Virus record (IMG/VR): IMGVR_UViG_3300045988_056900
Strand: one strand, 5' to 3'
From: a virus
Length of the DNA: 64,000 nt
Positions 1-32,001 of this stretch are shown piece after piece (the first letter of the stretch is position 1; the number at the start of each line of letters is the position of its first letter). The translations under genes and the position numbers were made by a program. The notes under the pieces are model-generated. The model had not been told where the DNA came from and did no database searches. It was given only the letters and a program-made list of their open reading frames with translations.

Positions 1-88
1 ATGCTGCTAAATATAAATCGGTTTCAACTTCCATGTTTGTATTCCATGGGATCTCGTCTTCTATATCCTGACGGATATGTTTAGACAT
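1..88 (-). CDS. small ORF (29 codons visible) ending ...DLYLAA; its stop codon runs off the window edge
   Basis: ATG at 86-88 on the minus strand. Reads MSKHIRQDIEDEIPWNTNMEVETDLYLAA. Base 1 is the T of the presumed stop. The terminal DNA TTAGCAGCAT matches the end of the 8595 gene (TTAGCAGCATAA). Confidence 0.35.
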   Translation of the reverse strand, partial: MSKHIRQDIEDEIPWNTNMEVETDLYLAA

Positions 89-123
89 CTTGTATATGAC
101 TATCGTTAGAAATAAAATCATAG

Positions 124-1008
124 TTAAAATGGATTCAAAATCTTATTCTCCATTATTTCGATACATACTTCATCCATATCAGATGACTGTGTATCATCCT
201 GAGTAGATACTTTGTCCTCTTCTTTTATTTTTTCAGTAGAAATATTCATATCTTTAGCTATTTGAGTTAAAGGTATATCTTCAAAGAGAACAACTTCATC
301 TAAGAATGCAGAAATATTATCAAATGATTTTACTTTCATATATTTGTTAATGAAGTTCACAACTTCATCTATATTCTTAACTCCTTTATCTTCTGCCATA
401 TAGCGTACAAATACAGAGTTAGAATTAGCTTCATACTGTTTGAAATAACGAACACGTGAGCATCTATCAAAGAAGTTCTCATCTATCTTTTCTGCTCTAT
501 TACAAGTCATTAATACAAGTTTCTTTGCTGTTGACTCTACTCCATCCAAGAATCCTAATAGATCCTTAGTTTCCCACCAATAATCGTTCTTCTCAATCTC
601 ATCAAACATGATTACTACAGGAGTAGTAAAGTTTTTGAAGAACGCACTTAGTTTATCAGCAGGATAGTCAGTTGCAACAACAATAATAGGTAGATTACTT
701 TCTAAGGCAATACGTTTAGAGAGCATTGTTTTGCCTGTACCTTTAGTACCAGCAAGTAATACACCTGTTGTTTGGTTAGAACTTTCAGAATTGAAATAAG
801 TAAGCACGCGATTAATAAAGTTATTATCCTCATCTAGCTTATACAGTTTCTTTGGCATATTCAAATCACCATTTTCTACTAGATAAGATTTTCCTTCCAT
901 ACGATTGTACTTTAGATCGTATACTTTACCTTTAATAAGTTCATATGCTAATCCTTCTAACTTTGGTTTAACTGTGATCTCATTACCTACTTTAATAAAT
1001 TCTGCCAT
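124..1008 (-). CDS. AAA+ family ATPase
   Basis: 294-aa ORF. Walker A GTKGTGKT, Walker B VVIMFDEIE, TAA stop. Confidence 0.8.
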   Translation of the reverse strand: MAEFIKVGNEITVKPKLEGLAYELIKGKVYDLKYNRMEGKSYLVENGDLNMPKKLYKLDEDNNFINRVLTYFNSESSNQTTGVLLAGTKGTGKTMLSKRIALESNLPIIVVATDYPADKLSAFFKNFTTPVVIMFDEIEKNDYWWETKDLLGFLDGVESTAKKLVLMTCNRAEKIDENFFDRCSRVRYFKQYEANSNSVFVRYMAEDKGVKNIDEVVNFINKYMKVKSFDNISAFLDEVVLFEDIPLTQIAKDMNISTEKIKEEDKVSTQDDTQSSDMDEVCIEIMENKILNPF

Positions 1009-1019
1009 AACTTCTGTTT

Positions 1020-1400
1020 TTATGTTTTTAGTTTGTCGATTAACTCATCGACTTGTTTCTACGTATGTACAACATAGAACGCTGTTTTAGGTTCATGTGT
1101 GTACAAATAATAGTTAAATAACTTTTCACGTAAAGGCCATGCCTCATTTGGAAAGCCTTTACATTCAATCACAAAACCTTTACCAACAAAGTCTGGTAAA
1201 TAGGTCATTGCTCTATATTTTTTGTTGTTAAAAGTAAAAGCTGGAAGTAGCTCATATCTATGCATTTCATAATCTGCTAGAATATTTGCTTCTTTCAGCT
1301 TTTTATATGTATATGTTTCAAGTTTACTTCGAAATTTAATTCCGTCATATTCGTTAGGAGTTGCATTTCGAACTCTACCTTGTTTTTTCTATTTCTTCAT
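1020..1400 (-). CDS. DUF1064-like PD-(D/E)xK nuclease (RecU/resolvase-like), readable only with TAG as sense
   Basis: ATG 1398-1400, in-frame TAG at 1389-1391 (codon 4) and 1059-1061, TAA at 1020-1022. Reads MKK[TAG]KKQGRVRNATPNEYDGIKFRSKLE...YLPDF...IECKG. There is no in-frame ATG between the first TAG and the conserved N-terminal motif. Confidence 0.55.
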
Positions 1401-2352
1401 ATAACCATTTTTTTACTTTCTCAAATCCATTTGCTTTAATAGCGTCAGATATATCTTTTGCCTTAAATTTCTTATGGACTAACATACCTTCTAAACCTGT
1501 TTTAAGGCTTATTTTACGGAGATATTTTACTCCAGCTTCATCTCTATCAAATAGTATAATAATACGTTTAAATCGCTTCTTTAACTGTTCTAGAATCTTA
1601 TTAGGTATAAATGTAGATTCAGATGAAGGTGAAATGGCTGGAATACCCATTTCATATAAACACATAACATCTTTCATACTTTTAGTAATAATTAAGATGT
1701 CACCTGTTTTTGGAAGCTGCTTAAATCCCTGAATATCTAATTCAGTAAGATTATTACGCCACTTTGTATATTTGTCTGCTAAAGGTTTATATATCTTAAA
1801 ATGATTGTATACCTTATAAGCATACATAGGATTATCTTCTTTATAAATGCTTTTTACTATGCCATTACATAGGTAGTACTTTATACTACTTACTCCAAAT
1901 TTTCTTAGAGTTTCTACCGTAATATTAAACTGCTTCCAGTAATTGATGTCAGTTTCAGTAAATTCCTGACGTACAACACCAATTACTGTTTCAGTTGACG
2001 GTATATATTGCTTAGAGCTAACGAGTTGCGTATCGTTAGTAATTTTAAGTCTTTCAACAATATCTTTAAGTATATCCGAGTAATTAGTTATACCTGTATA
2101 AAGTTCTATAAACTTTATTACATTTCCACACTGACCTGTTCCATGATCTTTAAACAACAACTGTTTTGTTTTTCTACTATAAAAGCATCCAAACGAAGGA
2201 GTTTTGTCTTTTCTCAATGGAGAATTATAGATCATTCCTACTTTAAAATTACCTATATACGCTGCATATATATCATACTCACTTACTCTAGAAAGAATCC
2301 AATCTAGAGTGATATTAAATGTATCTTTTACTTTTGTTGTATCGTAAATCAT
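1375..2352 (-). CDS. DNA primase (TOPRIM domain)
   Basis: 325-aa ORF. TOPRIM-like ILIITKSMKDV...ISPSSE and IILFDRDEAG (DxD). Ends in TAG. Confidence 0.75.
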   Translation of the reverse strand: MIYDTTKVKDTFNITLDWILSRVSEYDIYAAYIGNFKVGMIYNSPLRKDKTPSFGCFYSRKTKQLLFKDHGTGQCGNVIKFIELYTGITNYSDILKDIVERLKITNDTQLVSSKQYIPSTETVIGVVRQEFTETDINYWKQFNITVETLRKFGVSSIKYYLCNGIVKSIYKEDNPMYAYKVYNHFKIYKPLADKYTKWRNNLTELDIQGFKQLPKTGDILIITKSMKDVMCLYEMGIPAISPSSESTFIPNKILEQLKKRFKRIIILFDRDEAGVKYLRKISLKTGLEGMLVHKKFKAKDISDAIKANGFEKVKKWLYEEIEKTR

Positions 2353-2449
2353 ATGATATATTATTTATTGTCAAAGCAACGGGACTCGAACCACGTCGTA
2401 TAAGCAATCAACCTTATACGTAACCCAATTTGTTATACTTCGGTATAAA

Positions 2450-2475
2450 ACGTAGGTTAGAATCCTAACCTACGT
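2450..2475 (-). terminator. 11-bp perfect hairpin followed by a T-run on the minus strand, downstream of the SSB-like gene
   Basis: ACGTAGGTTAG-AATC-CTAACCTACGT. The minus strand continues TTTTATACC. A second small hairpin TTATAC-TTCG-GTATAA lies at 2432-2447. Confidence 0.45.
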
Positions 2476-2518
2476 ATTCCTAGCTTATGCTCTAGGTAGC
2501 TACTATTTTTAAGTTATC

Positions 2519-3142
2519 TTAGAACGGCAGATCGTCTGCTGGAGAACTGTTCATAGTAGATAGATCATCTACTTTAGTCTCTTTATCAGCAATGACAGGT
2601 TTTGTAAATCTGTCAATAGACAACTCTCTAATCAAACTCTTATTTTCTGGATTTGTTTCTTTGTCGTAGAACCCTTCTGGTAATACCATAGGTTCAATTA
2701 CTGCAAATTTAACATAAGTAGGCAAAGTAGTATAACCATTATCATTATAAACTACTTTAACCTTCAATAAGACATCTTTATTAGCTGCATTTAGCATTGT
2801 TACTACCCATTCAGTAAATTCTTTATAAGAACTACCATTAAAGTTCAGTACTCCTTTAGGATAGAAACAATTCATAATTCGCATTATACGAGTAACTACA
2901 TTAGTTACTTTAGCCTGATTCTGTTCAGCAGAATCTCCTTCTCTTTCATTTGGTTCCCACTCTGTATGTAGTAACTCTTTTCCGTCTTTTTCAAAACGAA
3001 ACTCCATAAAGTTTTTTCCAGTAGGAGATGTTGCTGCTCTTACACCAGTAAACTTAACATTATCATGAATACCTGCTTCAAGATATTTACTGTCATTACT
3101 TGTTATTGCTACTTTGCTTGCTAATTCTGTACTATAAACCAT
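2519..3142 (-). CDS. single-stranded DNA-binding-like protein
   Basis: 207-aa ORF in the replication module. Acidic C-terminal tip ...PADDLPF resembles the bacterial SSB tip DDDIPF. The OB fold was not verified. Confidence 0.5.
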   Translation of the reverse strand: MVYSTELASKVAITSNDSKYLEAGIHDNVKFTGVRAATSPTGKNFMEFRFEKDGKELLHTEWEPNEREGDSAEQNQAKVTNVVTRIMRIMNCFYPKGVLNFNGSSYKEFTEWVVTMLNAANKDVLLKVKVVYNDNGYTTLPTYVKFAVIEPMVLPEGFYDKETNPENKSLIRELSIDRFTKPVIADKETKVDDLSTMNSSPADDLPF

Positions 3143-3162
3143 AATTTCTTTGTTTTGTGTTA

Positions 3163-3903
3163 TTATTCAGGTAAGAAAATTCTGTCCATGTGAAACGTAA
3201 TTTCACCGTCTTCGTCGCTTTCTGCTACTACAATATTCTTACCTCGTAAATGTGGTGCTCTTGCTTCTCTTACTATATTACTTCCTCCTTCAAAGGAAAT
3301 AATTGTTTCGTTTTTCTTTCGATAAACATAACCAATAGCATCAGCTTCACCACAGATAATATCTCCTAATCTACCAGTAAGATCTAGAGTCATTTCTGAC
3401 ATCTCTTGACCTTCAATATTTATCTGCTTATCACGAGTATGAGCAATTAATATAAGATGATCACTTAGATCTCTGAACAAGTCGATTACCTTTTTAACAG
3501 CCATTCTTAGCCACATATAACCACTTCCATTTGGAAGAGTACGAATGTCTGTACCTTGATAATTTTTTCCTTGATTAGTGCCTTTGTAGAGCTGTATGGC
3601 ATAGCCCATGCATATTTCCTCAAGTCGAGTTGCATTATCTATAGTAATATACTTATACGGTCTTTTGCCTGTATTCTTAATTTCTTCTCTAATTGCAGCC
3701 ACAATATCTCCAAAATCTTTTACAGATCTTGCTTGTACAACTAGTGCAGATAAAGCCTGATAACCATTCTCTAAATCTATAATTAGATTATTGTCTAGAG
3801 AAGCCATAAGACTGGATTTACCAGCCTTAGGTTTCCCATAAAACACAGAGAACTTTGGATTACATATCTTTACTTCTGTTTTTTCTTTTGGTAATACAAT
3901 CAT
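3163..3903 (-). CDS. AAA_24 / Sak4-like ATPase
   Basis: 246 aa. Walker A GKPKAGKSS, Walker B YITIDNATRLEE, and ILIAHTRD. Confidence 0.8.
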   Translation of the reverse strand: MIVLPKEKTEVKICNPKFSVFYGKPKAGKSSLMASLDNNLIIDLENGYQALSALVVQARSVKDFGDIVAAIREEIKNTGKRPYKYITIDNATRLEEICMGYAIQLYKGTNQGKNYQGTDIRTLPNGSGYMWLRMAVKKVIDLFRDLSDHLILIAHTRDKQINIEGQEMSEMTLDLTGRLGDIICGEADAIGYVYRKKNETIISFEGGSNIVREARAPHLRGKNIVVAESDEDGEITFHMDRIFLPE

Positions 3904-3932
3904 AAAGCTTGTTTATTTTTGTATTCCGTGTA

Positions 3933-3961
3933 TTCTGATAAACTCTGACAATTTCTGATAA
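3933..3961. repeat. three tandem 10-nt repeats TCTGA(T/C)AA upstream of the AAA_24 gene
   Basis: TTCTGATAA / CTCTGACAA / TTCTGATAA with a 10-nt period. The same motif array occurs at 11544-11582. Confidence 0.6.
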
Positions 3962-3981
3962 GTACGGAATTAATATCTTAT

Positions 3982-4419
3982 TTAGAACCAACCATTATTT
4001 TTAATCTTAATTGTGATATCAATAATAGTCTTCTTTGTTTTCGGTTTTAGATGGTTCAATGAGCCCGGCATAATAGGAATAATGTCGTAGCCAATCTGAA
4101 CGAAATTATCGAAGATACGAATCGGAGTACCGAATTCATCTTCAAAGTCATAATCTTTTGCAAGAGAACTAAGTCCTGCAATAGCTTTGAAGAACTCGTC
4201 TTCCAAATTATACTTATTATTCAAGAAGTCATTTGCTGTATAACCCAAATTTGTCGGGATAGTATCTAATAGATACAAATCAACAGTAGTCTTTTTCTCT
4301 TTCTTGCCACCCAACCAAGGATATGCATTCAAGAATTTTTCAGCTAGACTTTCTTTAAAGTTATTAGCACTAGTATTATTATTTTTCTTCGGTAATGTAA
4401 ATGTATATGTTGTAATCAT
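3982..4419 (-). CDS. hypothetical protein
   Basis: 145-aa ORF, tightly packed in the operon. Confidence 0.6.
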   Translation of the reverse strand: MITTYTFTLPKKNNNTSANNFKESLAEKFLNAYPWLGGKKEKKTTVDLYLLDTIPTNLGYTANDFLNNKYNLEDEFFKAIAGLSSLAKDYDFEDEFGTPIRIFDNFVQIGYDIIPIMPGSLNHLKPKTKKTIIDITIKIKNNGWF

Positions 4420-4432
4420 AATTTTTCAGCCT

Positions 4433-5413
4433 TTAATTGTTATTACTAAACGAAATCTTCTTCGTAGGTTCTTCTTCCCTTATAGTCTCAATTAAATTAT
4501 TGTATTTTAGATCGTTATCAAACTCAAGTATAGCGCACTCTCCAGCATCCCTATTCTTTAGGATATGAAGATAGACTTTATTCTTAACTAGTAAACGATT
4601 CGGTCCATACTGTTGTATATTGAGTAGTTCCGGTCTATGAATACATATAACATAATCAGATGCATGGAATATAGTATCCGCAGAAGAAATGTCACTACGC
4701 ATTGGGTAATGCATAGATGGATTGTTAATCCTATCAGGAGCTTCAATGTTTCGATTCATCTGTGATAACTGAATTATAGTAGTATTAGGGTACTTTTTAA
4801 CCTTAATAAACAGTTTCTGTAAATCGGAAATCACTTTCAGTGCAGATTCTTGACCTTCTACAAGTAAAGTATGATCAAGGATAATAATAAATTTCTTACC
4901 CTTTGCATAGTTCTCGTAAAAATAATCAATAGTAGAAGCTATTTCTCCAACCGTCCCAGGTGTATCAACATAATATATCTGGTATGATTTTATTTGTTGA
5001 GACGCTGTCTCAACTTGCGCCAATGTGTCATCGTTTAATTCCTCGTTAGCGCTATATAGCTGTGCAGTAGTTTGCCTTAACTTACTACTTAATTTTCTAC
5101 CTACCTGCCTTGAACTTAACATCTCAAATGAGAAGTTAAGGATAACTACATCCTGTTCAGGATTTAGATCTATTAAATCATTTTCAAGTGTATTAACAAA
5201 TGATGATTTACCACTACCAGATATACCTACTATAGTATATATCGTATTAGGTTCAATTCCACCCATACAGTGTTTATTGAACTTATTCCACCTTGTTCTT
5301 AAAGATTGAATCTCATGATTCTTTCTTTGTTTTATATATTCTACTGCTTCTTTAGCTGCAATAGATATATGGCGGAAGGTAAGCGTATTAGTAGAGTTCT
5401 GTTCCATAATCAT
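4433..5413 (-). CDS. DnaB-like replicative helicase (RecA-like C-terminal domain)
   Basis: Walker A GISGSGKSS, Walker B IIILDHTLL, and the SQMNR motif (cf. DnaB LSQLNR). Confidence 0.85.
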   Translation of the reverse strand: MIMEQNSTNTLTFRHISIAAKEAVEYIKQRKNHEIQSLRTRWNKFNKHCMGGIEPNTIYTIVGISGSGKSSFVNTLENDLIDLNPEQDVVILNFSFEMLSSRQVGRKLSSKLRQTTAQLYSANEELNDDTLAQVETASQQIKSYQIYYVDTPGTVGEIASTIDYFYENYAKGKKFIIILDHTLLVEGQESALKVISDLQKLFIKVKKYPNTTIIQLSQMNRNIEAPDRINNPSMHYPMRSDISSADTIFHASDYVICIHRPELLNIQQYGPNRLLVKNKVYLHILKNRDAGECAILEFDNDLKYNNLIETIREEEPTKKISFSNNN

Positions 5414-5954
5414 TACTAATTATTGGTTCTTCTACTTTCATTTGTTCCTCGTATGTCTCCCACTCATGTTGAGTGAGCCATTTCCACATAGTTTTCATAT
5501 AACCGATTTTACCAGTAATCATTTTATTATCTATCTCATAAGATAAACATTTCATGATGTGCTGATGCATTGCTTTGCTTTTGCCAATTATTCGATTATA
5601 TTCCTTCCTACATTTGTTCACATTTGCCCTTAAAAAACCTTTGGTTCCGTCAGGTCTTATAACATAAACTGGAAATAGGTCATAGAATTCATCAAACATA
5701 GATTTATCTTCTTTAAGAAGTTCTTCTAGTTTTTCTGTTTTCTTTATGACTGTGGTATTGTCTACAGTGCTGGTAGCAATTAGACCACGAGACTCTAACT
5801 CTTGTATCTCTTCTTCATTAACTAGGCTGAGAAGTTTCTGAATGTCTTGATTGATGTTTTTGATATCACTCAATACAAGCGTTAGGAATACTAACTGATT
5901 AATAGATAAGTTTTCAATCCTATCAAGGATTGAGGTGTCTATTTCTAAAATCAT
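5388..5954 (-). CDS. hypothetical replication-module protein
   Basis: 188-aa ORF between the polymerase and the helicase. No motif recognised with confidence. Confidence 0.6.
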   Translation of the reverse strand: MILEIDTSILDRIENLSINQLVFLTLVLSDIKNINQDIQKLLSLVNEEEIQELESRGLIATSTVDNTTVIKKTEKLEELLKEDKSMFDEFYDLFPVYVIRPDGTKGFLRANVNKCRKEYNRIIGKSKAMHQHIMKCLSYEIDNKMITGKIGYMKTMWKWLTQHEWETYEEQMKVEEPIISNDYGTELY

Positions 5955-6009
5955 ATTCTCATATATTATACGAGCATACGGTATTTGAAATATATCTGAT
6001 AAGCCTTTG

Positions 6010-7989
6010 TTAATCCCATAGGCTCATTTGTAACGGTTTTAATTCACGGATTATCTTATAGGCTTCCATAATGTAATACCTATAATTAATCTTTCTCTCT
6101 TCAATTGGTTTATCGTCTAAGTAATTTAATAAAGTAACACCAGATGCAGTAAGCATATTCTGATACTGTTTTTCTTTTGCAACAAATATCTTTTTACCTA
6201 CATATGGTTCATCATATTCTATAATTTCACCTTCTTTGTGTCCTGTTGGTTTCCATTTCCATAAATAGGCACCATTAGTACTTGCATAGAAACGATTAGT
6301 CCTTTGTTGTTCTTTATTATTATACTCAACATGCCATTGTTTACCAGTCTTTTCAGCCATTAGAAAGTCTCTAATGTCTTGGCAACCTTTTATAGTTTCT
6401 TCTACTGGTACTCCGTTCTTAAAAAAGTTTATTACTGCTTTCGGTATGATCTTCGGAGTTAGACCTTTCCCTAATTTCACAGTAGTAATAAACATACCCT
6501 TTTCTTTTACTTTATCATCTTCAGTAATAGCAAAGTAGTCATTTATAGCATATTGATACATAGCCTTAAAACGTTCTTCTTCTAAAGTAAGTTTAGTAAG
6601 TTGTTCCCATTCTCTGCATACTTTGTTTACACTATCATATACAGATTTTTTAAGTAATACAAACAGACCATCTGTATTAGCTTGGACGATTCGACATCCT
6701 AATTGGGTTAGTTTTTCAGCTAGCATTAGTAATAGTAACTGCCCATTTATACGTATTTGCATTACTGCAAATGGACTATAACAGAAATTATGTGGATTCT
6801 GTAAGTTACCTGATAATCCATTGAGAGCAAGCTTTAAGGTTTCGTTTTTAACCTTATTGCCATTGTGTTTAGCTTCGATGCGCTCATCTTTAATTTGTCT
6901 ATATACTTCTAGAAATTCAGGTCCTAAATGTTTAGGATAGAACCCATATTCTATTAGCATACTTGGATATAGTGATGCAACATCTATATCAATGAGCATT
7001 TCATCTTCTTTTGGTATAACTATTTCAGGATCATTCACTGAATGAATTCCTCCAACTCCTACAGAATATCTTAATCCTTCAAATATGAATTTATTTTCAT
7101 ATCCTTTTCTTCCTGGAGATACTATTTGACTTTTCATATCATCTAGTACTTTTTGAAGTATAGGACTATCATACTTAATAAATGGTAGGATTACCTTATT
7201 TAAAGGTATTACATCCATTGGAGATCTTAAATCTTTAATATCATACCAGGTTTGACCTGTCTTTTCAAGATATTTCTGAGTTAAAATCTTCATTCCAATG
7301 TTTACTCCGTCTTTACTAAGTACTCTTACTCCGTATTCATCTTCAATAGCTAACCTTAAATCTACATCTTTTTTACATCTATTGAGTAACTCTTCAGTAG
7401 AATTAACATCATTAATATTATACTCAATCATTGAATCTATTTGATTTTCAGGTAAATCTGCCTGCCAATCTGCAACAAATTCCTGTACATTTCTGTACTG
7501 CATTGTTACTTGAATTTCTTTCAAACCTACTCTTAACTTATTGCTATAAAGCATAGTAAGAATATCAAACGAATCAAAACAAATCATATACTTCCACTTA
7601 CTCCAAGCTCTAATATCGTCTTCACTTGAAGTAGTAATTACTTTACTTAAATTAAATATAGATCTACATATATCTCTATATCCTTTGTATTTCATTACAA
7701 CATAATAATCTATTATATAATTTATAATAGGATTATCATAATGAAGATTATTATAACCACAAAATAATTTATTAGTATTTAACTGAATTTTTGTAGTATA
7801 TAAGTCTCCGAAAGTATAGTCTGTATTAACTGTATGAAAGAAATTGACTAATTCATCTAATTGATTTCTTCTGCAAGATATTTCAAATTTATGCAATTCA
7901 CCTGTTTCTGTATTTTTTACAGTACAATGGAAAACATTGGGGAATACCTCAATATCATATACATAAACAATCTTATCTCGTATAATCAT
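6010..7989 (-). CDS. family B DNA polymerase
   Basis: 659 aa. Exo I DIEVFPN, Exo II NNLHYDNPI, Exo III YNINDVNS, motif A DVASLYPS, motif B KLALNGLSG, motif C QANTDGLFV. Confidence 0.95.
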   Translation of the reverse strand: MIIRDKIVYVYDIEVFPNVFHCTVKNTETGELHKFEISCRRNQLDELVNFFHTVNTDYTFGDLYTTKIQLNTNKLFCGYNNLHYDNPIINYIIDYYVVMKYKGYRDICRSIFNLSKVITTSSEDDIRAWSKWKYMICFDSFDILTMLYSNKLRVGLKEIQVTMQYRNVQEFVADWQADLPENQIDSMIEYNINDVNSTEELLNRCKKDVDLRLAIEDEYGVRVLSKDGVNIGMKILTQKYLEKTGQTWYDIKDLRSPMDVIPLNKVILPFIKYDSPILQKVLDDMKSQIVSPGRKGYENKFIFEGLRYSVGVGGIHSVNDPEIVIPKEDEMLIDIDVASLYPSMLIEYGFYPKHLGPEFLEVYRQIKDERIEAKHNGNKVKNETLKLALNGLSGNLQNPHNFCYSPFAVMQIRINGQLLLLMLAEKLTQLGCRIVQANTDGLFVLLKKSVYDSVNKVCREWEQLTKLTLEEERFKAMYQYAINDYFAITEDDKVKEKGMFITTVKLGKGLTPKIIPKAVINFFKNGVPVEETIKGCQDIRDFLMAEKTGKQWHVEYNNKEQQRTNRFYASTNGAYLWKWKPTGHKEGEIIEYDEPYVGKKIFVAKEKQYQNMLTASGVTLLNYLDDKPIEERKINYRYYIMEAYKIIRELKPLQMSLWD

Positions 7990-8008
7990 AATTAATAATG
8001 TTAGTTTG

Positions 8009-8066
8009 AGTCTGTGGAGGGAATCGAACCCTCATTTAACAGTTTTTCCATTTAAACTACACAGAC
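8009..8066 (-). ncRNA. tRNA-like module A lacking an anticodon arm (58 nt)
   Basis: Minus strand reads GTCTGTG-TA-GTTT-AAATGGAA-AAAC-TGTTAAAT-GAGGG-TTCGATT-CCCTC-CACAGAC-T. It has a perfect 7-bp acceptor stem, a D-arm with GG, and a canonical T-arm. Only 8 nt occupy the place of the anticodon arm. Confidence 0.55.
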
Positions 8067-8119
8067 AACCAGCATACTGCCGCATTAAAATTTCTAAATT
8101 ATGGATTTGCTAGCATATT

Positions 8120-8569
8120 TTAGGCGGCTAGCGAAGCCTTTGTTGTACTTGTTTTTCGTACATACGTTTTCTTAAACGCTACAAGGGAAGCTTTGTACTT
8201 AGCCTTGTCTTCTTTGCTTTGTTTAATAGATTTTGCTTTAGATTGTTTCATATGAATAATCATATGATCAAACTTAACTTGAGCATCGAGCTGTTTTCTG
8301 TCGTATTTATTAAACCTAGGATAATTGATAGATTGAAATACGAAAGTACTTTTTCTCTTTTCAACAAGAGCTTTTGCTCTTTCTCGTTTAACTTTTCTAC
8401 GAGCTTTAAGTTCTTCACTATAGAAGTTTTTTGGTTTAACCTCTTCTTCAGAAGTAATTTGTTTTACTCGAAATACTCTTCTTTCTGCTTTTCGAGCATT
8501 TCTTGCTGCAACTCTCTCTTCACTACGTGCTATTTTATATTCTTCTTTTCTGTTTTTATCTATTTTCAT
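8120..8569 (-). CDS. lysine/arginine-rich protein with C-terminal ...ASLAA
   Basis: 149-aa ORF, TAA stop. Terminal codons are CTA GCC GCC TAA. Confidence 0.75.
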   Translation of the reverse strand: MKIDKNRKEEYKIARSEERVAARNARKAERRVFRVKQITSEEEVKPKNFYSEELKARRKVKRERAKALVEKRKSTFVFQSINYPRFNKYDRKQLDAQVKFDHMIIHMKQSKAKSIKQSKEDKAKYKASLVAFKKTYVRKTSTTKASLAA

Positions 8570-8594
8570 ATCTTGATAATATTAATAGTTAAAC

Positions 8595-9359
8595 TTATGC
8601 TGCTAAAAGTTTTGATTTAGTGTAATAGGTCCAATTGTTATTACTTAAATCTTCAACGGTTATTCCGGTGAACTTATCATTGTTTTCGTACTTCTTAGCT
8701 AATACTTTTACTTTAGAGAATGCTTCTTCTTTATCATTAGCATCTAAATAATCCGTGTAGAAGTCTGTACTTTTCATAGGATTATCTTCGCTTTGATTCT
8801 GTACTACATAACGGAACTTACGAGTGTTCTTTTTGTTATTTAGCACTTCTCTTCCTTTCTTTAGGAATTCTAAAACAGAAGCCTTCACCTCATTTATATG
8901 AGGTCTACTGGCTAACAGTTCAGCTTTATACTCTTTTTCACGTTGAAATCTAACCTTGATTTCTTCATCAGTTAGATTAACTGGTTTCGGCTGAACAAAC
9001 AGTCGTTTTCTAATTAATCGAGTGAACTTCTTCTTCTCTTTCCTAGTATAATGAACTGTAGGTTCAAATCCAGCGCTTGCTAGAATTTGCTTAATAAGCT
9101 CCTTCTTAGCTTGTTTAGCTGTTTTATTTTCCTGACGAGAGTTCTTTCCTACTTCTGTAGTATAGCTTTTTTGCTTAACTTTACCAACTATGTTGGTTAT
9201 TATTACTTTCCCATTCTCACCCTTTGTAATATAGGGAGATGGACCCGGTCTTCTAAATACTTCTTCTACTTTCTTAGATCTACGTAATTTAGAACGGTTA
9301 GTTCTCGATAATTTTTTTCCTTTATGATCTTTATGTTTACCTGATAAATTCTTTTTCAT
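8595..9359 (-). CDS. lysine/arginine-rich protein with C-terminal ...KLLAA
   Basis: 254-aa ORF. Terminal codons are TTA GCA GCA TAA. Confidence 0.75.
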   Translation of the reverse strand: MKKNLSGKHKDHKGKKLSRTNRSKLRRSKKVEEVFRRPGPSPYITKGENGKVIITNIVGKVKQKSYTTEVGKNSRQENKTAKQAKKELIKQILASAGFEPTVHYTRKEKKKFTRLIRKRLFVQPKPVNLTDEEIKVRFQREKEYKAELLASRPHINEVKASVLEFLKKGREVLNNKKNTRKFRYVVQNQSEDNPMKSTDFYTDYLDANDKEEAFSKVKVLAKKYENNDKFTGITVEDLSNNNWTYYTKSKLLAA

Positions 9360-9412
9360 AATCTTGATAATTTTAGAAGTTAATAACTAGCGAGCCCAAA
9401 GGCTCGCATTAA

Positions 9413-9922
9413 TTAAGCGGCTAGACAAATAGGAGCTGATTCAATATCAAGTTCAGCTTTGTCATTAAAATCTTCTAAGTCTTTATTCAACTTATTAATT
9501 TCTATCTGCAGCTTATTCTTTATATTGCTGATGTAAGCTGAAGTGAGTTCCTCACTAATATTCAGATTCTTTTTGCCTTTAGCTCGCTTTATCTTTGGGT
9601 CGATTGTTTTAATCTTCCCTAAATGAAACAGTTGTTCCTGTTTCTCGGATAGTGAAAATATTGTATAATAGTTATTTTCTGCTGGTAAATCAGAGAACTT
9701 CTTATAACCCATATTAATACATTGTAAATACAGTTTCATAAGAATTCGTTCTTCTGCCATTTCTTGAATCTTCGTTAACAGTACCTTAAGGTCATAATTA
9801 CGAATAGTTCCTTTAGAAATGATATTTTCGTTTTTAATAATCGTCCAATATTTAGTAATATCTTTACTAAGTTCATCGCGACGATTTTTTGCATATTTAG
9901 ATGTAATTGATTTCATATTCAA
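9413..9922 (-). CDS. hypothetical protein with C-terminal ...ICLAA
   Basis: 169-aa ORF. Terminal codons are CTA GCC GCT TAA. It is followed on the minus strand by the hairpin GCGAGCC-TTTG-GGCTCGC (9391-9408). Confidence 0.75.
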   Translation of the reverse strand: MNMKSITSKYAKNRRDELSKDITKYWTIIKNENIISKGTIRNYDLKVLLTKIQEMAEERILMKLYLQCINMGYKKFSDLPAENNYYTIFSLSEKQEQLFHLGKIKTIDPKIKRAKGKKNLNISEELTSAYISNIKNKLQIEINKLNKDLEDFNDKAELDIESAPICLAA

Positions 9923-9971: not shown

Positions 9972-10037
9972 TCATGCATGACAGATTCAAACTGCCGTCC
10001 CTCTGATGAGTGCTCTAATCAACTAAGCTAATGCATG
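9972..10037 (-). ncRNA. tRNA-like module B with a vestigial anticodon arm (66 nt)
   Basis: Minus strand reads CATGCAT-TA-GCTT-AGTTGATTA-GAGC-A-CTC-ATCA-GAG-GGAC-GGCAG-TTTGAAT-CTGTC-ATGCATG-A. It has a 7-bp acceptor stem, a D-arm and a T-arm. A 3-bp/4-nt mini hairpin replaces the 17-nt anticodon arm. Confidence 0.5.
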
Positions 10038-10044
10038 TTATATA

Positions 10045-10139
10045 ATAGAGAACTACCCCATTCAGTAGTCTCTATTAAAGTAGTACCCCATTCAGTACTA
10101 TTAATAGATATTGATATGATGAATACCCAGTTCAGTATT
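10045..10139 (-). promoter_or_regulatory. three tandem stem-loops with a conserved 8-nt loop and covarying stems
   Basis: Plus-strand stems and loops are ACTAC-CCCATTCA-GTAGT (10052-10069), TAGTAC-CCCATTCA-GTACTA (10081-10100) and AATAC-CCAGTTCA-GTATT (10122-10139). The second stem pair changes C:G, G:C, A:T. Confidence 0.55.
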
Positions 10140-10713
10140 ATAAATCATCACGTTCAACAATTTTTATTTCTTTTGCAAAATAGACCGGTAGAATCCGTCC
10201 GTCTGTTGTTTTAGCACCAACATATAGTTTATTTCCTGTTTCAGAAACTCCTACACTTCGGTTATGTTCTTTTTCATTCGAATACTTTTGTAAATACTTT
10301 TCATTGATATACTTAGAATGTAGTTCTCCGTTCGTACTACTTCTTACTACATCAAATAAAATATCTACCATTTTATCCAAATCATTATTATCGGTAGCTT
10401 CTTTTAATATGGCATTCATAATACCATAAAAAGCTTCCTCATTTCTTGCTTCTCCAGTTCCAGACATTGTGTCTGCTAATTTGATTGCTATATCAGTAAT
10501 ACTCACCAGTCCATGAGCATTAAAGAACCGTTGCCACCATCTAGGACCACTTCCATAGTACAAGATAATCTGTCCATCCTCTTGTATATCTACTTTTTTA
10601 GGTCTTTCGTTAATTCTCCCATTCAAGATCTTAACTTTTGCTAAAACAGCTGGTTCATAAATAATTAGCATACGCAAGATATCAACCCGGGAAGGTGATA
10701 ATCTTCCGTTCAT
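10138..10713 (-). CDS. hypothetical protein
   Basis: 191-aa ORF. Confidence 0.7.
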   Translation of the reverse strand: MNGRLSPSRVDILRMLIIYEPAVLAKVKILNGRINERPKKVDIQEDGQIILYYGSGPRWWQRFFNAHGLVSITDIAIKLADTMSGTGEARNEEAFYGIMNAILKEATDNNDLDKMVDILFDVVRSSTNGELHSKYINEKYLQKYSNEKEHNRSVGVSETGNKLYVGAKTTDGRILPVYFAKEIKIVERDDL

Positions 10714-11351: not shown

Positions 11352-13499
11352 AAAAAATGTTCCCTTCTTGAGTCCGCATTTGATATACCAATACAGATCA
11401 TTTTTTAGTTTTTAAGTTAATAATAAGTTAATGCTCTCCACTGTTCGATTATTTTATAGCATTACAATAATGGTAATGGTGAATTCAATCACATAATCTA
11501 CTAGGTATTAAAATAATAAATGTTAATTTATTTGAAAATATCTTCTGATAAATTCTCTGATAATTTCTGTTAATTCTGATATGTTTATCGTCCCGTTTCG
11601 ACGGTTAAGATTCAACTTTTTCGATGCTTAACGCACCTCTCACCGTTATTTTATATCGCGATTAGATGCAATATAAAAGACATAGATCATTGACTAATGG
11701 TAAGTCTACCTAGTATTTCCGGATTATCGAAATTCATAGAATTACGGTCGTTTATCTAACGTTACCAACTCACAAGCCCATTACTTATAGTATGGCCCAC
11801 TTGTACCATGCATAGGATTTGTTGTTTATTCTGCTCGAACACGAGGATTTCCACCTCTCATCGTCTCCTTGTTGCTCAATTGTTATTACTATTGAGTCGA
11901 AATGTACTACGCCCTTTAATCTACCGAGACAGGGTGATAGGCGACAGGTTATTAACGAATCAGCGTTCTCTTTACATATATACTTGCAATATATACTTTA
12001 GGAGTTTCTAATGTCAGCGATGACGGTTGGCAGTCTGGGGTGGATCATACTCCTTATCTGACTACTTTACAACAGTAGTTTGCTATCTCTGTACTCGCCA
12101 TTGAACTTCCCAATTTGGTAAAGATTAATAATGTTAACAATTCACTTAGAACAGATTTAACTAGGCCGGTTCTATTCGGCATTAACTTTCAGATGCAGTA
12201 AAGTAACATCATCTGTTACAGTCTTACCTCTCTGGTTCCAGGGTTCTAAGCTGGAGCAGCTTGGCTCTTACTCATTAATTTATTGTTTTTGACCACTACT
12301 AATATCTCCTACTCTGGAATGAGTGTGATAATCTAGCAATGCACCTTTACATATCTTAAAAGGTATAAGCTCTGCTGTTTTTTACGAGGAGTTTTCTAAG
12401 CTTCTCCTTAGTATTATTTATCATTATAATCACACTTGCTAAAGGTGTGTAACGATTAGAATCAGGGTTATTGCGCCCTCAAACCGCTTAGACACTCTTG
12501 GTCTATTCATTCCTCATTCAATTATACTCACACGAACGAATAAGCACGTGAGTCACTTTAGACTTGAAAGACGGTATCAATCTCATATACCTCATCCCTT
12601 ATACGTAAATTCTTTTGCGGCACGCTAGTTACGGTAGCGCACAGGATTGGCTCCTGCTCCCTGGTAATCAGTCTATTTTCACTATAATTTTAACATAGTT
12701 ACTTAGGATCATTGCATGTCCAGCCTTCATATCTTTACTTTGTATAAGTATGTACCATAACACGGTTATCCTTACATTAGTATCAGTAATTACTCCCTTT
12801 ATATTATGAACCAATTATCATAAAAACACTAGAGTTAGCCTATTTTTCCAATCAGGACGCATAGTTGCGTTTTTGTATGAAGCGAGGTTGGAACCCGCTT
12901 GTTGCGTTAGTCAGCCATAATGTATTTTTCGATAATCCTTTTCCAAGGGATTATCCAAGAACCCTTTGTCCTTGTTTCAGCATCGTGTTCATATTCCTTC
13001 TTGAGTCACATCTTGATTGACGCATACGAATATAGAGATTTCGTTCTCTTTTTGAGGATTAAGGATTTCATCTTTTGTAGTTTTTATTTGCTTATTGCTA
13101 CGAATTCATCTCCTCGGTTTTGAATTAATTTGTAACTAGGGTATCTTCTTGTAGCTCCTATATTACGGGTTCTTCACTCTTAATATCACCAGACGGTTCT
13201 CATATTAACAGCGCAGGCTATTCACCCTCTCCTGCTTTCTTATACCTTTTTCACCAGTATAAGTTATTATCCTACCTTTTGAGTATCTCACAGTGTTAGC
13301 TGCTACGAAGCATCTCATAACTACTTCTTACATATTCTCGGATTCTGTCTTTTTTCGGGCTATGTGTAAATGGACACAAACTCCCTGACGCAGTAGTACT
13401 TAAAAACTTCCTTCTGTGACTGCCGGAGTGATTTACGCTATAGTTTTACTCCTCTCGAACTATGATATAATTATAGTATTTATATAGCGGCTATTATCA
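11352..13499. other. 2.15-kb ORF-free block, candidate large non-coding RNA locus
   Basis: No ORF of 60 aa or more on the operon strand. Where I checked by hand (13140-13499), stops occur in all three minus-strand frames even when TAG is ignored. The block is flanked by complete co-directional genes and looks richer in G+C than the flanks. It has many short hairpins, for example CCGT-TTCG-ACGG at 11593-11604 and AAGCTG-GAG-CAGCTT at 12248-12262. Confidence 0.5.
11544..11582. repeat. four tandem TCTGATAA-type repeats
   Basis: TCTGATAA (11544), TCTGATAA (11556), TCTGTTAA (11566), TCTGATAT (11575). Same motif as the array at 3933-3961. Confidence 0.55.
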
Positions 13500-17094: not shown

Positions 17095-17451
17095 TTAAAA
17101 TGGTAATCCTAGTTCATATCTACAGTGATACTCCATATAATCTTTTGAGAACTTTTGATAAGCATCCCAAATACATTCCATAAATTCTCTTTTCATAGCT
17201 ATAGATATTCTATTTGAAGAGAGTTTATTAACCATTCCGCATACTATTCTAATACGGACATCCAGAGTAAACTTAGTATCCTTACCAATTCTTTGAAGTA
17301 TATTAGTATCAAACCAATATATTATGTGTCTAACAGATTCATGAGTTTTCTCTAAATTTGTATAGACCCACCATGATGCTCTCCAATGAAATGATTGATA
17401 TTGTTTACCCCACGGAGTATATACTCTGTTAGTAAGACTGTATAATACCAT
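17095..17451 (-). CDS. hypothetical protein
   Basis: 118-aa ORF. Confidence 0.6.
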   Translation of the reverse strand: MVLYSLTNRVYTPWGKQYQSFHWRASWWVYTNLEKTHESVRHIIYWFDTNILQRIGKDTKFTLDVRIRIVCGMVNKLSSNRISIAMKREFMECIWDAYQKFSKDYMEYHCRYELGLPF

Positions 17452-18389: not shown

Positions 18390-18449
18390 TGGCATTAGAG
18401 GGAATCGAACCCTCTAACAGCTCTTACGTCTGATCTAGCCTGATATGCC
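18390..18449 (-). ncRNA. tRNA-like module C (60 nt) lacking a canonical anticodon arm
   Basis: Minus strand reads GGCATAT-CA-GGCT-(14 nt)-AGCT-GTTA-GAGGG-TTCGATT-CCCTC-TAATGCC-A. The T-arm is identical to module A. The acceptor has 5 bp plus 2 mismatches. Confidence 0.4.
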
Positions 18450-18485: not shown

Positions 18486-18707
18486 GGCGACTGTCACTAT
18501 TTCTAGCGCTAAAATCTATTTCACAACCCCATCATTAGTAACAGTTTCTCTTTAAATAAAGAGTTGTTAACCAGGATACTGTATGCTCCCCTGGGGATAT
18601 CTCACGCTGCTAAGCGTGTATAATCCATTACATAACTTGTATTGCCAGTTATCTGCTTATTGACCTATTCTACTTCACATTGTCGCAGTCAAATGCCTAG
18701 ATGCCCC
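18486..18707 (-). ncRNA. tmRNA-like coding piece: 5' acceptor strand, D-loop-like motif and tag reading frame ending LAA-stop
   Basis: The minus strand from 18707 reads GGGGCAT-CTAGGCATTTGAC-TGCGAC. Positions 18646-18602 read GGC AAT ACA AGT TAT GTA ATG GAT TAT ACA CGC TTA GCA GCG TGA, that is GNTSYVMDYTRLAA*. ACAGTC at 18494-18489 can pair with GACTGT of the upstream acceptor piece. The 3' boundary is a guess. Confidence 0.4.
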
Positions 18708-18863
18708 ATTTAAAGTAGTACTCTTACAAAATTTAACTTATAGTTTGAGTACTACTCCCGATCTTCCTATCGCTGTTAATGAAAAAACTCTTAGAGAGAA
18801 ATCGAAAATTAGCGTAAGATTTCTATACGGGCCTCTTATTATTCTTGCTTATTCCATTTTTTG

Positions 18864-18920
18864 TGGAGCATGAGGGAGTCGAACCCTCGTCCTAACGACT
18901 GATTCATAGACCTAACAGTC
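18864..18920 (-). ncRNA. tmRNA-like acceptor piece: hairpin, GGAC, T-arm, 3' acceptor strand and discriminator A
   Basis: Minus strand reads GACTG-(14 nt)-CAGTC-GTTA-GGAC-GAGGG-TTCGACT-CCCTC-ATGCTCC-A, followed by CAA. ATGCTCC is complementary to GGGGCAT at 18707-18701, with G3:U70. Confidence 0.4.
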
Positions 18921-19551
18921 AATGAGTTTATAAGATTAATTGAAGTATAACTCGCGTACAGAATTAAGCCATTCTTCCTGCTTTATTATTTAACACAGTT
19001 CACAGCACTCTCTACAGGTGAGCCTTCGTTATGTTATACAATATCCCTGCTATTTTTACAATTAATCTTATATTGTGACTAGGTAGGCGACCAAACCTAC
19101 CTAGCCTATGGTCTTTTACGATATTTAAAGTATTCTCATACTATTAATGCCTTGATAACCTGTCTTGGAAGTATAGAATACTTTTCAGCTTCTATACGGC
19201 ATGATGTCTAGCATCGCACTATTCCAAAAATGCCGACTTGATATCATAAGAATGCTATTGCATAATATACTCAAAGAGTATAGAATCTGTATTTATATAT
19301 TGCGCAATTTATATATACATCCTCATGATCTTAGGCACATGATCAGTGGCACGTTGTCATAATGTCCTACTCTGGCATCGGTTGTATTACTACACCTTAC
19401 ACTTGTTGTATGCATGTCAATTCATGCATGAGCTGCATCTTCTGGTACTTAGCACATAAAATGTCATCACCACCTATTAGCTACTTTCTCTAGTTAGGTT
19501 ATATAGTCAGTATTTCTACTGCTAAAACACTATACCTGGACTATGCGCGGA

Positions 19552-20016
19552 TTAAAGGGACAACAGTTGTCCATCCCATCTCCAATCATAACGGGCTTTC
19601 GGGTACTGGTTAAGCAATTTGTTTTGCTGTTCCTGATACCATTTGTCAACTTCACGAAGAAGATTGTTAGCCTCTTTGTAGAGCTCTTTACAATCCTTCA
19701 GGTAGTCTTCAATAGTGATGCCGCCGTTACGCAGTTTATCATCTTTTTCAGAGAACTTCTTCAAGTAATTGAGTTTGACCTCTTTTTCCTTGTCGGTCTT
19801 TTTCATACTCAAATAAGTTGCAAGACGAGTATACTCACTCTTCAAAGTTACGTCAATATGACGTTCCGTGAGCTCCTCTTTACGCTGTTTTGCAATCTTT
19901 TCAGCAGCAGCTTTTGCAACATCTTCTGTTACAGTTGAGCCATTGTTGATTACTTCTTCAATGTTCTCTGCTGATACTTTTGTAATATCAGCTACTTTTG
20001 CTTCTTCTTTTGTCAT
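19552..20016 (-). CDS. hypothetical protein
   Basis: 154-aa ORF preceded by the conserved leader AAACATTATCAAAAA-ATG. Confidence 0.75.
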   Translation of the reverse strand: MTKEEAKVADITKVSAENIEEVINNGSTVTEDVAKAAAEKIAKQRKEELTERHIDVTLKSEYTRLATYLSMKKTDKEKEVKLNYLKKFSEKDDKLRNGGITIEDYLKDCKELYKEANNLLREVDKWYQEQQNKLLNQYPKARYDWRWDGQLLSL

Positions 20017-20063
20017 TTTTTGATAATGTTTAAAGATTGATACTATTGTTAATTAATCTCGAG

Positions 20064-20330
20064 TTATTTACTCTTCTTTTTTGCAAGATATTCTTTACGA
20101 AGACGTCTCTTGCGTTGGTTACATGATTCACGTTTACCTGCTTTGACAAGTTTACGATTCTCATATGCCTGTTCTCTTTTCCAGCTATTTTCACGAATGA
20201 GCTGTAAATAGATAATCTCACGAGCTATATTAGCTTCTGCTTTAGCTTTATGAGCATTGATGCGTCCTTGAATTATCTCTTTTGACACACCTCTTTTTCT
20301 CATTTCTGAGATAATTCTTCTTTGTCCCAT
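20064..20330 (-). CDS. small basic protein
   Basis: 88-aa K/R-rich ORF. Confidence 0.6.
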   Translation of the reverse strand: MGQRRIISEMRKRGVSKEIIQGRINAHKAKAEANIAREIIYLQLIRENSWKREQAYENRKLVKAGKRESCNQRKRRLRKEYLAKKKSK

Positions 20331-20539
20331 ATTTTTGATAATTTGGTTTTAGAATTAAAAAAAGAACTGTTCTGTATATTCCTATCTCTTATTCTACAGA
20401 TAACCCCTATCCTTCTCTCCCTTTATCTGTAGATTTACAGATTGCCGTTGAATAGCCATTACATAGTAATATGTATTAGGGTTTTGGTATATTTACAGTT
20501 CTTTCGGGTTGATTGGAATCCACCATACTAACAATTTAA

Positions 20540-20809
20540 TTAGTAATATAAATCAGGTAAATAAGGCTCTGGCGGAATCTTATTTACCATTTTTAAGTAT
20601 TCATCGTAATGAAATATCTTTTTCCATTTTTCTAGTTCTTCATTACGCTTACGTAGAAGTCTTTCCTGATACGTAAGTTTTGTTGCCATTCTGAGTTTAC
20701 ACTCAAGATCACATTCACTACAGTCGATAATATTATCTTGTGTAGGACATTCGTTAGAAATTGAATTTGAAGTTTTCATGATCATCTCGACCAAATAAGT
20801 GTTTGACAA
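20540..20809 (-). CDS. hypothetical Cys-containing small protein
   Basis: 89-aa ORF. The start is uncertain because it overlaps the upstream gene by 56 nt. Internal ATGs lie at 20785 and 20779. Confidence 0.5.
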   Translation of the reverse strand: MSNTYLVEMIMKTSNSISNECPTQDNIIDCSECDLECKLRMATKLTYQERLLRKRNEELEKWKKIFHYDEYLKMVNKIPPEPYLPDLYY

Positions 20810-21167
20810 TCATAGGTTTACATATTCTTGCAAATTCTTTTGCTGTATCCCTGTCTTTGAATTCCAAGGAATTACCGACAGCAGCATAAGCACCAGCATG
20901 GCCGAGCTCATAGTGCGAACCAACAACGAGCAAGCCCGAAGATTTTCTATTATCTGTATAGTTCCAACCCCATATATAATACCTTATCTCTTTTGGATCT
21001 ATTGTTGTAGGTTTCCAGCCTTCATTTAAAGCTTTTGCAACAGTTTCTAACTTGATGAAGTTCCTAGTTTCATCTGTTAATTTGTAACTTTTATAATTAG
21101 CTACAGGACGAAGACCTAGTATTTTACATGCGTCTTCATAAGGTTTCTCTTTACTTAACTTAATCAT
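20754..21167 (-). CDS. hypothetical protein
   Basis: 137-aa ORF. Confidence 0.65.
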   Translation of the reverse strand: MIKLSKEKPYEDACKILGLRPVANYKSYKLTDETRNFIKLETVAKALNEGWKPTTIDPKEIRYYIWGWNYTDNRKSSGLLVVGSHYELGHAGAYAAVGNSLEFKDRDTAKEFARICKPMIVKHLFGRDDHENFKFNF

Positions 21168-21262
21168 GCCTTTTTGCGATTATAAGGTTCCATTTTCTTA
21201 TGCTTAGGACGTTTTTTGTATTCCGTCTTAGTTTTTACTTCTTTCTCCTTATTCTTTCCCAT
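21164..21262 (-). CDS. 32-aa basic peptide
   Basis: MGKNKEKEVKTKTEYKKRPKHKKMEPYNRKKA. ATGA overlap with the next gene. Below the cutoff of the ORF track. Confidence 0.35.
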   Translation of the reverse strand: MGKNKEKEVKTKTEYKKRPKHKKMEPYNRKKA

Positions 21263-21264
21263 AA

Positions 21265-21735
21265 TTAAAAGAGTTTTAATATACCATTGATCTCTTTCAA
21301 ATAATATGGAATATTTGAAAGATGTTTAGCCTCAAGAACTTTCTTACAAGTAGGTTGTAATCTTCCAGCACTTATCAGATATTTAATTATATCTGTATTT
21401 TGCTGACGAATATCTGCATCATTGAGGAATCTTTTTACAAATTCTACTTTGAATAAACTTTCATTGCTGAAGTTCACAGGATTACCTACTTTTGTGATAA
21501 TATTATCACAGAATATAGATGTAAGTTCTTCAAGATTTGGTTCCTTAGCAGTCATTGTTTCTGCTTTTGATACTAATATTTTAGCTACATCAACATCTTC
21601 GAAATCAACAATCTTTAAATTGTCTGATTCTATTTTTATATGTTGAGTCATAGCATTAGCAATGTCCCGAATGGTTATATCTTTACGGGCATTACTAACA
21701 TAATCGCCTTCAAATAAAATTACTATTGCTTTCAT
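21265..21735 (-). CDS. hypothetical protein
   Basis: 156-aa ORF. Confidence 0.65.
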   Translation of the reverse strand: MKAIVILFEGDYVSNARKDITIRDIANAMTQHIKIESDNLKIVDFEDVDVAKILVSKAETMTAKEPNLEELTSIFCDNIITKVGNPVNFSNESLFKVEFVKRFLNDADIRQQNTDIIKYLISAGRLQPTCKKVLEAKHLSNIPYYLKEINGILKLF

Positions 21736-21737
21736 AA

Positions 21738-23105: not shown

Positions 23106-23131
23106 TTTGATAATGTTTTTAAAATTAATAA

Positions 23132-31993: not shown

Positions 31994-32001
31994 CTTAATA
32001 T

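Follow-up and report, generated by a model that had tools for sequence, protein, structure and literature searches.

Conserved LAA-type C-terminal tails on three unrelated proteins encoded beside the DNA polymerase gene of a gut crAss-like phage

Three adjacent genes end in LAA

The 64,000-nucleotide stretch analysed here, hereafter the window, is part of the IMG/VR virus record IMGVR_UViG_3300045988_056900 and is from a Suoliviridae (gut crAss-like) phage. Its matches are placed in Crassvirales, Suoliviridae, Loutivirinae, Buchavirus, and its first 12 kilobases (kb) share 98% identity with the crAss-like phage cr113_1 and 85% with cr52_1. The minus strand between 1 and 27 kb carries a replication module, a sigma factor and several ribozyme/RAGATH RNAs. 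Within it, three adjacent genes, designated A, B and C, encode proteins ending in leucine-alanine-alanine (LAA), an ending that an earlier reading of the window (the original prediction) had singled out as an ssrA-type degron. This A-B-C cluster lies immediately upstream of the gene for family-B DNA polymerase (PolB) in every Suoliviridae genome examined.

9413..9916, minus strand: gene A, 167 amino acids, ending ...ESAPICLAA; tail codons 9416-9424, stop codon TAA at 9413-9415
8595..9359, minus strand: gene B, 254 amino acids, ending ...YYTKSKLLAA; tail codons 8598-8606; isoelectric point (pI) 10.1; lysine plus arginine (K+R) 24%
8120..8569, minus strand: gene C, 149 amino acids, ending ...TTKASLAA; tail codons 8123-8131; pI 10.4; K+R 30%

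The three ends can be read directly as ICLAA, KLLAA and ASLAA, as had been reported for the open reading frames (ORFs) at 9413-9922, 8595-9359 and 8120-8569. The start given there for gene A needs revision, since all homologues start with MKSITSKY, which makes ATG at 9916 more likely than TTG at 9922. Each LAA is followed by TAA, with the tail codons cta gcc gct taa in A, tta gca gca taa in B and cta gcc gcc taa in C. The motif stands at the extreme C-terminus with the stop codon directly after it, and the same holds, by way of its relatives, for a small ORF at 1-88 described below. These tails are not tags added by transfer-messenger RNA (tmRNA): each gene contains its LAA codons in frame, synonymous codons vary and stops follow.

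LAA ends occur in 3 of the 266 ORFs of at least 40 amino acids in the window, whether translated with the standard code or with TAG as a sense codon. At leucine and alanine frequencies of 8.3% and 5.2%, the probability of such an end is about 2e-4 per gene, in agreement with the earlier estimate of one in several thousand. The claim that no other ORF ends this way holds among the 266, with the qualification that one more frame in the window does so, namely the tag frame of a phage tmRNA (18646-18602), which is not a protein gene. In cr113_1, none of the 17 remaining annotated genes outside the window has an LAA-type end.

The tailed genes had been described as four in a row. Three are consecutive; the fourth, the ORF at 1-88, lies 8 kb away, and between 88 and 8120 are nine genes, none with an LAA end. 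They encode an AAA ATPase, a small DUF1064-like ORF, a primase, a protein resembling single-stranded DNA-binding protein (SSB), a Sak4-like ATPase, a protein of unknown function, a DnaB-like helicase, a ScpB-like protein and PolB.

The terminal residues are conserved while the preceding sequence drifts

Among database homologues, A ends in LAA in 106 of 120 cases; the remainder end in LVA, LTA, IAA or LAT, or have LAA before a TAG that the gene caller took for glutamine. For B the figure is 66 of 93, and most other B homologues end in xAA or have an LAA-TAG through which gene calling continued. C ends in LAA in 30 of 61 homologues, in QAA in 18 and in LVA in 2. A similar picture emerges from genomic loci, where A ends in LAA (34), IAA (30) or LVA (17) in 81 of 81, and B in LAA (68), AAA (9), LVA (1) or IAA (1) in 79 of 79. 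Across the 3255 ORFs of at least 60 amino acids in the 81 loci, such ends are nearly confined to A, B, C and the equivalents of C, with 2 exceptions. A non-polar residue followed by AA is found four times in the window, each time as LAA, and the homologues provide LAA, IAA, LVA, FAA, MAA and AAA. Positional entropy is minimal at positions -1, -2 and -3 in families A, B and C alike; the terminal xAA is kept while the C-terminus before it drifts, as would be expected from the degron proposal.

To cover the family more widely, we analysed 12 genomes from Boori-, Beari-, Uncou- and Oafivirinae (one record being without subfamily assignment). Here A is 35-50% identical and ends in LAA, VVA, AAA or non-polar x[A/T/I]V. 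One or two genes lie between A and PolB, and their products end in EAA, QAA, NAA, SAA, AAA, KAA, VAA, MAA, LAA, KVA or NVA. The positional equivalents of C in diverged genomes end in QAA, NAA, IAA, RAA, LAA, AAA, MAA or KVA. At greater depth, a profile search of a library clustered at 50% identity yielded 108 full-length representatives of the A family, one per cluster, of which 58 (54%) end in A and 41 (38%) in AA. The residue before the terminal AA is L, I, F, M, A, Y or V, and earlier residues are essentially random. IMG/VR does not contain P0289, a distant member that lacks the AA tail. By these alignments, what is conserved at the very C-terminus is AA-COOH or [A/V]A, and LAA is this subfamily's version of it. 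The strict LAA of the original prediction gives way to this broader core.

The tails are written with different codons (TTA, CTA or CTT for leucine; GCA, GCT, GCC or GCG for alanine) and closed by TAA, TGA or TAG. This use of synonymous codons and of all three stops indicates that selection acts on the peptide and not on a DNA or RNA motif, and a nucleotide-motif explanation was rejected on this codon analysis. B variants carrying 7-17 added C-terminal residues have new ends that are again LAA, TAA, SAA or AAA, and the B proteins annotated with 'IKI' ends are cases of LAA-TAG read through by recoding-aware gene callers.

It is extremely improbable that the ending is shared without any function of the peptide, through chance, common descent or a nucleotide signal overlapping the stop. 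A hairpin after gene A (9407-9390) and the similar leader motifs ATTATCAAGAT and TATTAACTT ahead of B and C could be taken to favour such a signal. The variation of codons and stops speaks against it, as do the motif's re-formation after C-terminal extensions, its persistence in genomes where nucleotide similarity is gone, and the differing intergenic distances. Common descent is contradicted by the absence of detectable homology among the three proteins, for which BLASTP comparisons of A, B and C with one another gave no significant similarity; paralogy was rejected on this ground. A promoter and terminator scan around the cluster was uninformative. Chance, paralogy and nucleotide signals are, from these comparisons, effectively refuted and can be set aside for practical purposes. 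The aligned sequences indicate instead that the tails are under peptide-level selection at the extreme C-terminus, in a manner common to non-homologous neighbours across the phage family.

Proteins A, B and C

None of the three proteins has a PHROG or Pfam match. Homologues of A are restricted to Suoliviridae. Its AlphaFold2 (AF2) model is a helical bundle with a predicted local distance difference test (pLDDT) score of 96, falling to 77 over the last ~8 residues, and a Foldseek search with it against PDB and BFVD gave no match save the cr118_1 orthologue. The partly confident AF2 model of B comprises a disordered K/R-rich N-terminus, helices and a C-terminal beta-beta-alpha-beta-beta domain, with no significant Foldseek match in PDB and BFVD. 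In the A and B models, which are predictions only, the tail is modelled as less ordered than the body: the last residue block has a pLDDT of ~77 against more than 90 in the adjacent domain. The K+R contents of B and C agree with the earlier description of two of the proteins as very rich in these residues. Together with the fixed position upstream of PolB, the charge suggests that A, B and C are nucleic-acid-associated proteins acting in replication or its control.

C is dispensable, as some relatives are without the gene. Four clusters of C homologues (P0224, P0226, P0228 and P0230) have a frameshift after residue 134, at an A-run, and are called as proteins of 173-179 amino acids through TAG read-through into a tRNA-like element, with loss of the LAA end. 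These variants may reflect sequencing error or the natural decay of a dispensable gene.

Tag ends of host and phage tmRNAs

Host-type tmRNAs were located by means of a degenerate tag pattern, and ARAGORN confirmed them. The tag is GENNYALAA in Segatella copri, Prevotella and Paraprevotella and GETNYALAA in Bacteroides, both encoded by one-piece tmRNAs. The statement in the original prediction that Bacteroides tags end in ALAA is borne out by the location of GETNYALAA in genomes. Fusion of this tag to green fluorescent protein (GFP) caused near-complete signal loss in B. thetaiotaomicron (bioRxiv 10.1101/2025.03.18.644028). Together with the ALAA-ending host tags, this loss marks ALAA ends as strong degrons among these hosts.

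The window also encodes a tmRNA.

18511..18957, minus strand: permuted (two-piece) tmRNA; acceptor piece 18923-18864, spacer 18863-18708, coding piece from 18707

According to ARAGORN, its tag frame at 18646-18602 reads GNTSYVMDYTRLAA followed by a stop, and so ends in LAA. The element matches Rfam RF04321 end to end at 40.3 bits (E = 2e-6), under the gathering score of 47. Its acceptor stem, GGGGCAU/AUGCUCC, has 7 base pairs including the invariant G3:U70 alanine identity pair; it has a T-arm with a GTTCGA loop, no anticodon arm, and a helix 2 between the two pieces. Over 18 distinct tmRNA sequences, pairing is kept at 99.6% across the 27 pairs that make up the acceptor stem, T-arm and helix 2; 6 of these pairs are compensatory, none is altered one-sidedly, and a U:G is invariant at pair 57:64. 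The spacer between the pieces is hypervariable, at 76-156 nucleotides. The tmRNA is syntenic in 52 related loci, with the tag GNTSYV[MT]DYTRL[AV]A followed by a stop, and related tags also occur in other subfamilies. The gene is not new to databases, tmRNA having already been annotated at this place in several RefSeq Suoliviridae records; our literature search found no paper that discusses it.

The phage tag ends in LAA, LVA or IAA, which is the same repertoire as that of protein A. Over the 52 loci, tag end and protein tails share this repertoire only, and no genome-by-genome co-variation between them was found. In cr113_1, an HNH-type endonuclease gene (L095 1056-1637; window ~18694-19071) replaces the acceptor piece, and ARAGORN finds no tmRNA at that locus. 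Because A, B and C of cr113_1 keep LAA despite the disrupted tmRNA, the tails are independent of it, and obligatory coupling of the two was rejected. The tmRNA is likewise undetected in about 14 of the 66 related loci with enough flank, and the tails persist there. No SmpB was found among 60 window proteins scanned, so host SmpB would be needed for the predicted trans-translation.

We consider it somewhat probable that the A, B and C tails are genome-encoded ssrA-like degrons or ClpX-recognition tails that engage a host machine of the ClpX(P) type; the case for the signal is strong, that for its reader indirect. The [L/I/F/M/Q]-[A/V]-A-COOH ends of A, B, C and the 29-residue peptide of the small ORF would mimic the end of the host tmRNA tag and deliver these proteins to such a host machine, an AAA+ unfoldase or a protease. 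A, B and C, two of which look like nucleic-acid binders, are expressed from the replication-module strand; once their synthesis drops, they would be intrinsically short-lived or pulled off complexes, and would thereby act during a single phase of infection. Recognition by ClpX, degradation and a role in timing are all steps that we infer from the tails, and simple timed turnover is the most economical version of this ClpX-type reading.

The same recognition step could serve other ends. ClpX might act on these proteins as a remodeller, as on MuA or lambda O, or the tails might be decoys ('swamping'), in which case abundant LAA-tailed proteins and products tagged by the phage tmRNA would compete for ClpXP and shield other phage or tagged proteins. 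All of the evidence for ClpX-type recognition is shared by this alternative; the very basic, partly disordered character of B and C is consistent with nucleic-acid binding, and the phage's investment in its own tmRNA suggests that the load on the ssrA pathway is relevant to it. Sequence does not separate remodelling or decoy action from simple turnover. The disruption of the tmRNA in cr113_1, and its non-detection in the other loci where the tails persist, show that the two are not obligatorily coupled, and gene C is dispensable. We regard this alternative to timing as doubtful. Quite unlikely, in our estimate, is the more elaborate proposal that the phage tmRNA and the xAA-tailed, probably DNA-binding proteins form a coordinated 'ssrA-language' module that reprograms or titrates ClpX(P) or uses ClpX as a replication remodeller.

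The small ORF and the replication neighbourhood

The fourth LAA end of the window belongs to a small ORF located between the AAA ATPase and exonuclease genes.

1..88, minus strand: small acidic ORF, 29 amino acids, pI 4.2, MSKHIRQDIEDEIPWNTNMEVETDLYLAA then T.., its stop starting at window base 1
124..1008, minus strand: AAA ATPase, classic clade (Pfam PF00004, E = 5.5e-12)
1375-2352, minus strand: primase
2519-3142, minus strand: SSB-like protein with the C-terminus DDLPF
6010..7989, minus strand: PolB

The original prediction gave this ORF a YLAA end with the stop outside the window, and its copies in cr52_1 and cr113_1 indeed show LAA-TGA, with a stop that overlaps the exonuclease start codon (ATG). 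The LAA end is present in 12 of 12 detectable copies. The ORF is absent from the RefSeq annotation of cr113_1 and is known from sequence as a putative ORF; no AA-tailed equivalent was found in other subfamilies.

The AAA ATPase gene lies directly upstream of this ORF. The PDB sequences nearest to its product are NVL, AFG2, VCP, NSF and FtsH (E = 2e-6 to 1e-2), and no aromatic pore loop is obvious from inspection of the sequence by eye. As the sole phage-encoded candidate reader of the tails, it is a purely speculative one. RefSeq labels the protein 'proteasome (non-ATPase regulatory subunit)'.

These neighbours bear on the main true rival of the ClpX-type reading, in which the AA-COOH tail of A, B, C and the small peptide is a docking motif through which all four would bind a single partner with no proteolytic role. 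This could be the phage AAA ATPase, the polymerase or exonuclease, or a host factor, by analogy with the tips of SSB and T7 gp2.5. The location of A-B-C in the replication module, directly upstream of PolB throughout Suoliviridae, would suit such a partner, as would the position of the small peptide between the ATPase and exonuclease genes. Some A-family members carry an SSB-like DLPF tip in place of the tail, and the SSB-like protein of the window itself ends in DDLPF. LPF tips are conserved on this protein (2519-3142, minus strand) in 68 of 70 relatives and on the product of 17095-17451 (minus strand, LGLPF) in 61 of 67. A, B and C of the window end in AA rather than PF and lack an SSB-type tip (an acidic run followed by [I/L]PF). 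The partner remains putative, the ATPase is without an obvious pore loop, and the small peptide's tail is restricted to one subfamily. Moreover, the tmRNA tags of host and phage end identically to the tail, and such tags are known to target proteins for proteolysis. On balance we judge docking unlikely, and prefer recognition by a ClpX-type machine. Periplasmic tail-specific proteases (Prc/Ctp) were dismissed as readers, as no N-terminal signal sequence was obvious when the proteins were read by eye.

Comparison with known systems

Non-polar xAA-COOH ends are read by the ClpX pore, and native 'C-motif 1' substrates of ClpX include Caulobacter CtrA and E. coli proteins with LAA-like tails. ClpX also remodels MuA, and xAA-COOH ends serve timed destruction or the disassembly of DNA-bound complexes. 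These rules are those of proteobacterial ClpX and may not be those of the Bacteroidales enzyme. The terminal LAA-COOH of the Bacteroidales tmRNA tags is identical to the tails of A, B and C. In contrast to the tags, which are added co-translationally to incomplete proteins, the phage tails are gene-encoded and followed by a normal stop on full-length, conserved proteins, and they do not mimic the upstream GENNYA part.

The closest precedent for an ssrA-like tail encoded in phage genes is found in the Int and Rep proteins of mycobacteriophages (BPs, Brujita, cluster P and others), where such tags set ClpXP-dependent stability (PMC9635641, citing Broussard 2013). These are temperate actinophages with integration-dependent immunity, in which the tag decides between lysis and lysogeny and is removed by integration. 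The present phage, in contrast, is apparently virulent, infects Bacteroidales, has no integration device and encodes its own tmRNA. Its tail is found on three unrelated, uncharacterised proteins, in a fixed cluster by the polymerase gene, and family-wide.

Phage-encoded tmRNAs are themselves known, with 79 in the tmRNA database and a two-piece tmRNA in a marine methylophage (PMC9004378). Like the permuted tmRNAs of RF04321, the phage element has the acceptor/T-arm piece first, followed by the 5' acceptor strand and the tag frame, together with G3:U70, the T-arm and helix 2. Unlike them, it falls under the Rfam gathering threshold and is accompanied by no phage SmpB in the 60 proteins scanned. 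It differs from the one-piece tmRNAs of Bacteroidota hosts in being permuted and in its longer tag of different sequence.

Several observations weigh against recognition by a ClpX-type machine. A Pfam scan of 60 window proteins found no ClpX, ClpP, SspB, SmpB or Lon, so that the reading rests on host factors. Outside this subfamily, B and C frequently have a polar or charged residue (E, Q, N, S, K) third from the end, and A of Oafivirinae ends in IAV, LTV, LAV, LIV or IAY. By E. coli rules both kinds of end would be weaker ClpX signals. The A-ending tail is carried by 58 of the 108 distant A-family representatives and not by the rest, and three distant members (P0400, P0405 and P0419) end in DLPF, which resembles the docking motif of SSB tips; the tail position can therefore host motifs that are not degrons. 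We know of no Suoliviridae phage in culture. For the host side, the preprint cited above names no protease acting on ssrA tags in Bacteroidales (bioRxiv 10.1101/2025.03.18.644028).

TAG codons and the tails

The B orthologue of cr52_1 (L001 12002-12664) ends in LAA-TAG, as do P0165, P0166 and P0176. A tRNA with the matching anticodon is encoded in the window.

32002-32076, plus strand: tRNA with anticodon CUA (labelled tRNA-Pyl by ARAGORN); a 103-nucleotide tRNA with an insert adjoins it, the pair spanning 31891-32076

In cr113_1, which is nearly identical, the large structural genes have as many as 73 in-frame TAG codons. This tRNA(CUA) and the abundance of in-frame TAG in late genes indicate that TAG is reassigned there (beyond ~39 kb). 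If TAG were decoded as glutamine late in infection, the B orthologue could be extended to LAA-QLLTxNIIKI, with loss of the terminal AA and masking of the degron. A tie between the tails and TAG reassignment through expression of the phage tRNA(CUA) is possible.

Other features of the window

Three direct copies of TACTGAAYGGGGTA (minus-strand reading), spaced by ~30 nucleotides, occur at 10043-10138 between the gene at 10138-10713 and a tRNA-like element upstream of gene A; they may serve as an operator or promoter. At 8009-8066, ~9972-10036 and 18391-18449 on the minus strand are short tRNA-like elements that have an acceptor stem and a T-arm and lack a normal anticodon arm; the first, only 58 nucleotides long, reaches 44.9 bits with the tRNA model of Rfam. 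Other Suoliviridae have bona fide tRNAs (Val, Ser, Arg, Leu) in these intergenic positions, and the short elements may be decayed tRNAs retained as processing signals.

A 2.1-kb region at 11352-13499 is interrupted by stops in each of the six frames and matches no Rfam family. Its conservation in the subfamily is 70-80%, and the equivalent place is unannotated in every Suoliviridae record examined, making the region a candidate large non-coding RNA or cis element. A replication origin was considered and rejected: iterons are missing, and the GC skew switches at another place, near 26-27 kb. Further along, among small ORFs at 19327-24586 on the minus strand, are the known structured RNAs RAGATH-20, RAGATH-9, a Hatchet ribozyme and RAGATH-7, with a weak twister-P1 match in the same run.

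Implications for crAss-like phages

In the library searched, no paper dealt with degrons or tmRNA of crAss-like phages, for which ssrA-like tails are apparently undescribed. These phages are among the most abundant viruses of the human gut, and most proteins of their early and replication modules are without known function or regulation. A conserved tail on three unrelated proteins offers a cheap experimental handle on the timing or protection of replication-associated proteins. More generally, phage gene families could be mined for regulatory signals in their C-terminal tripeptides. The tails, together with the phage tmRNA, point to the host ribosome-rescue/ClpXP axis as a site of interplay between phage and host in Bacteroidales.

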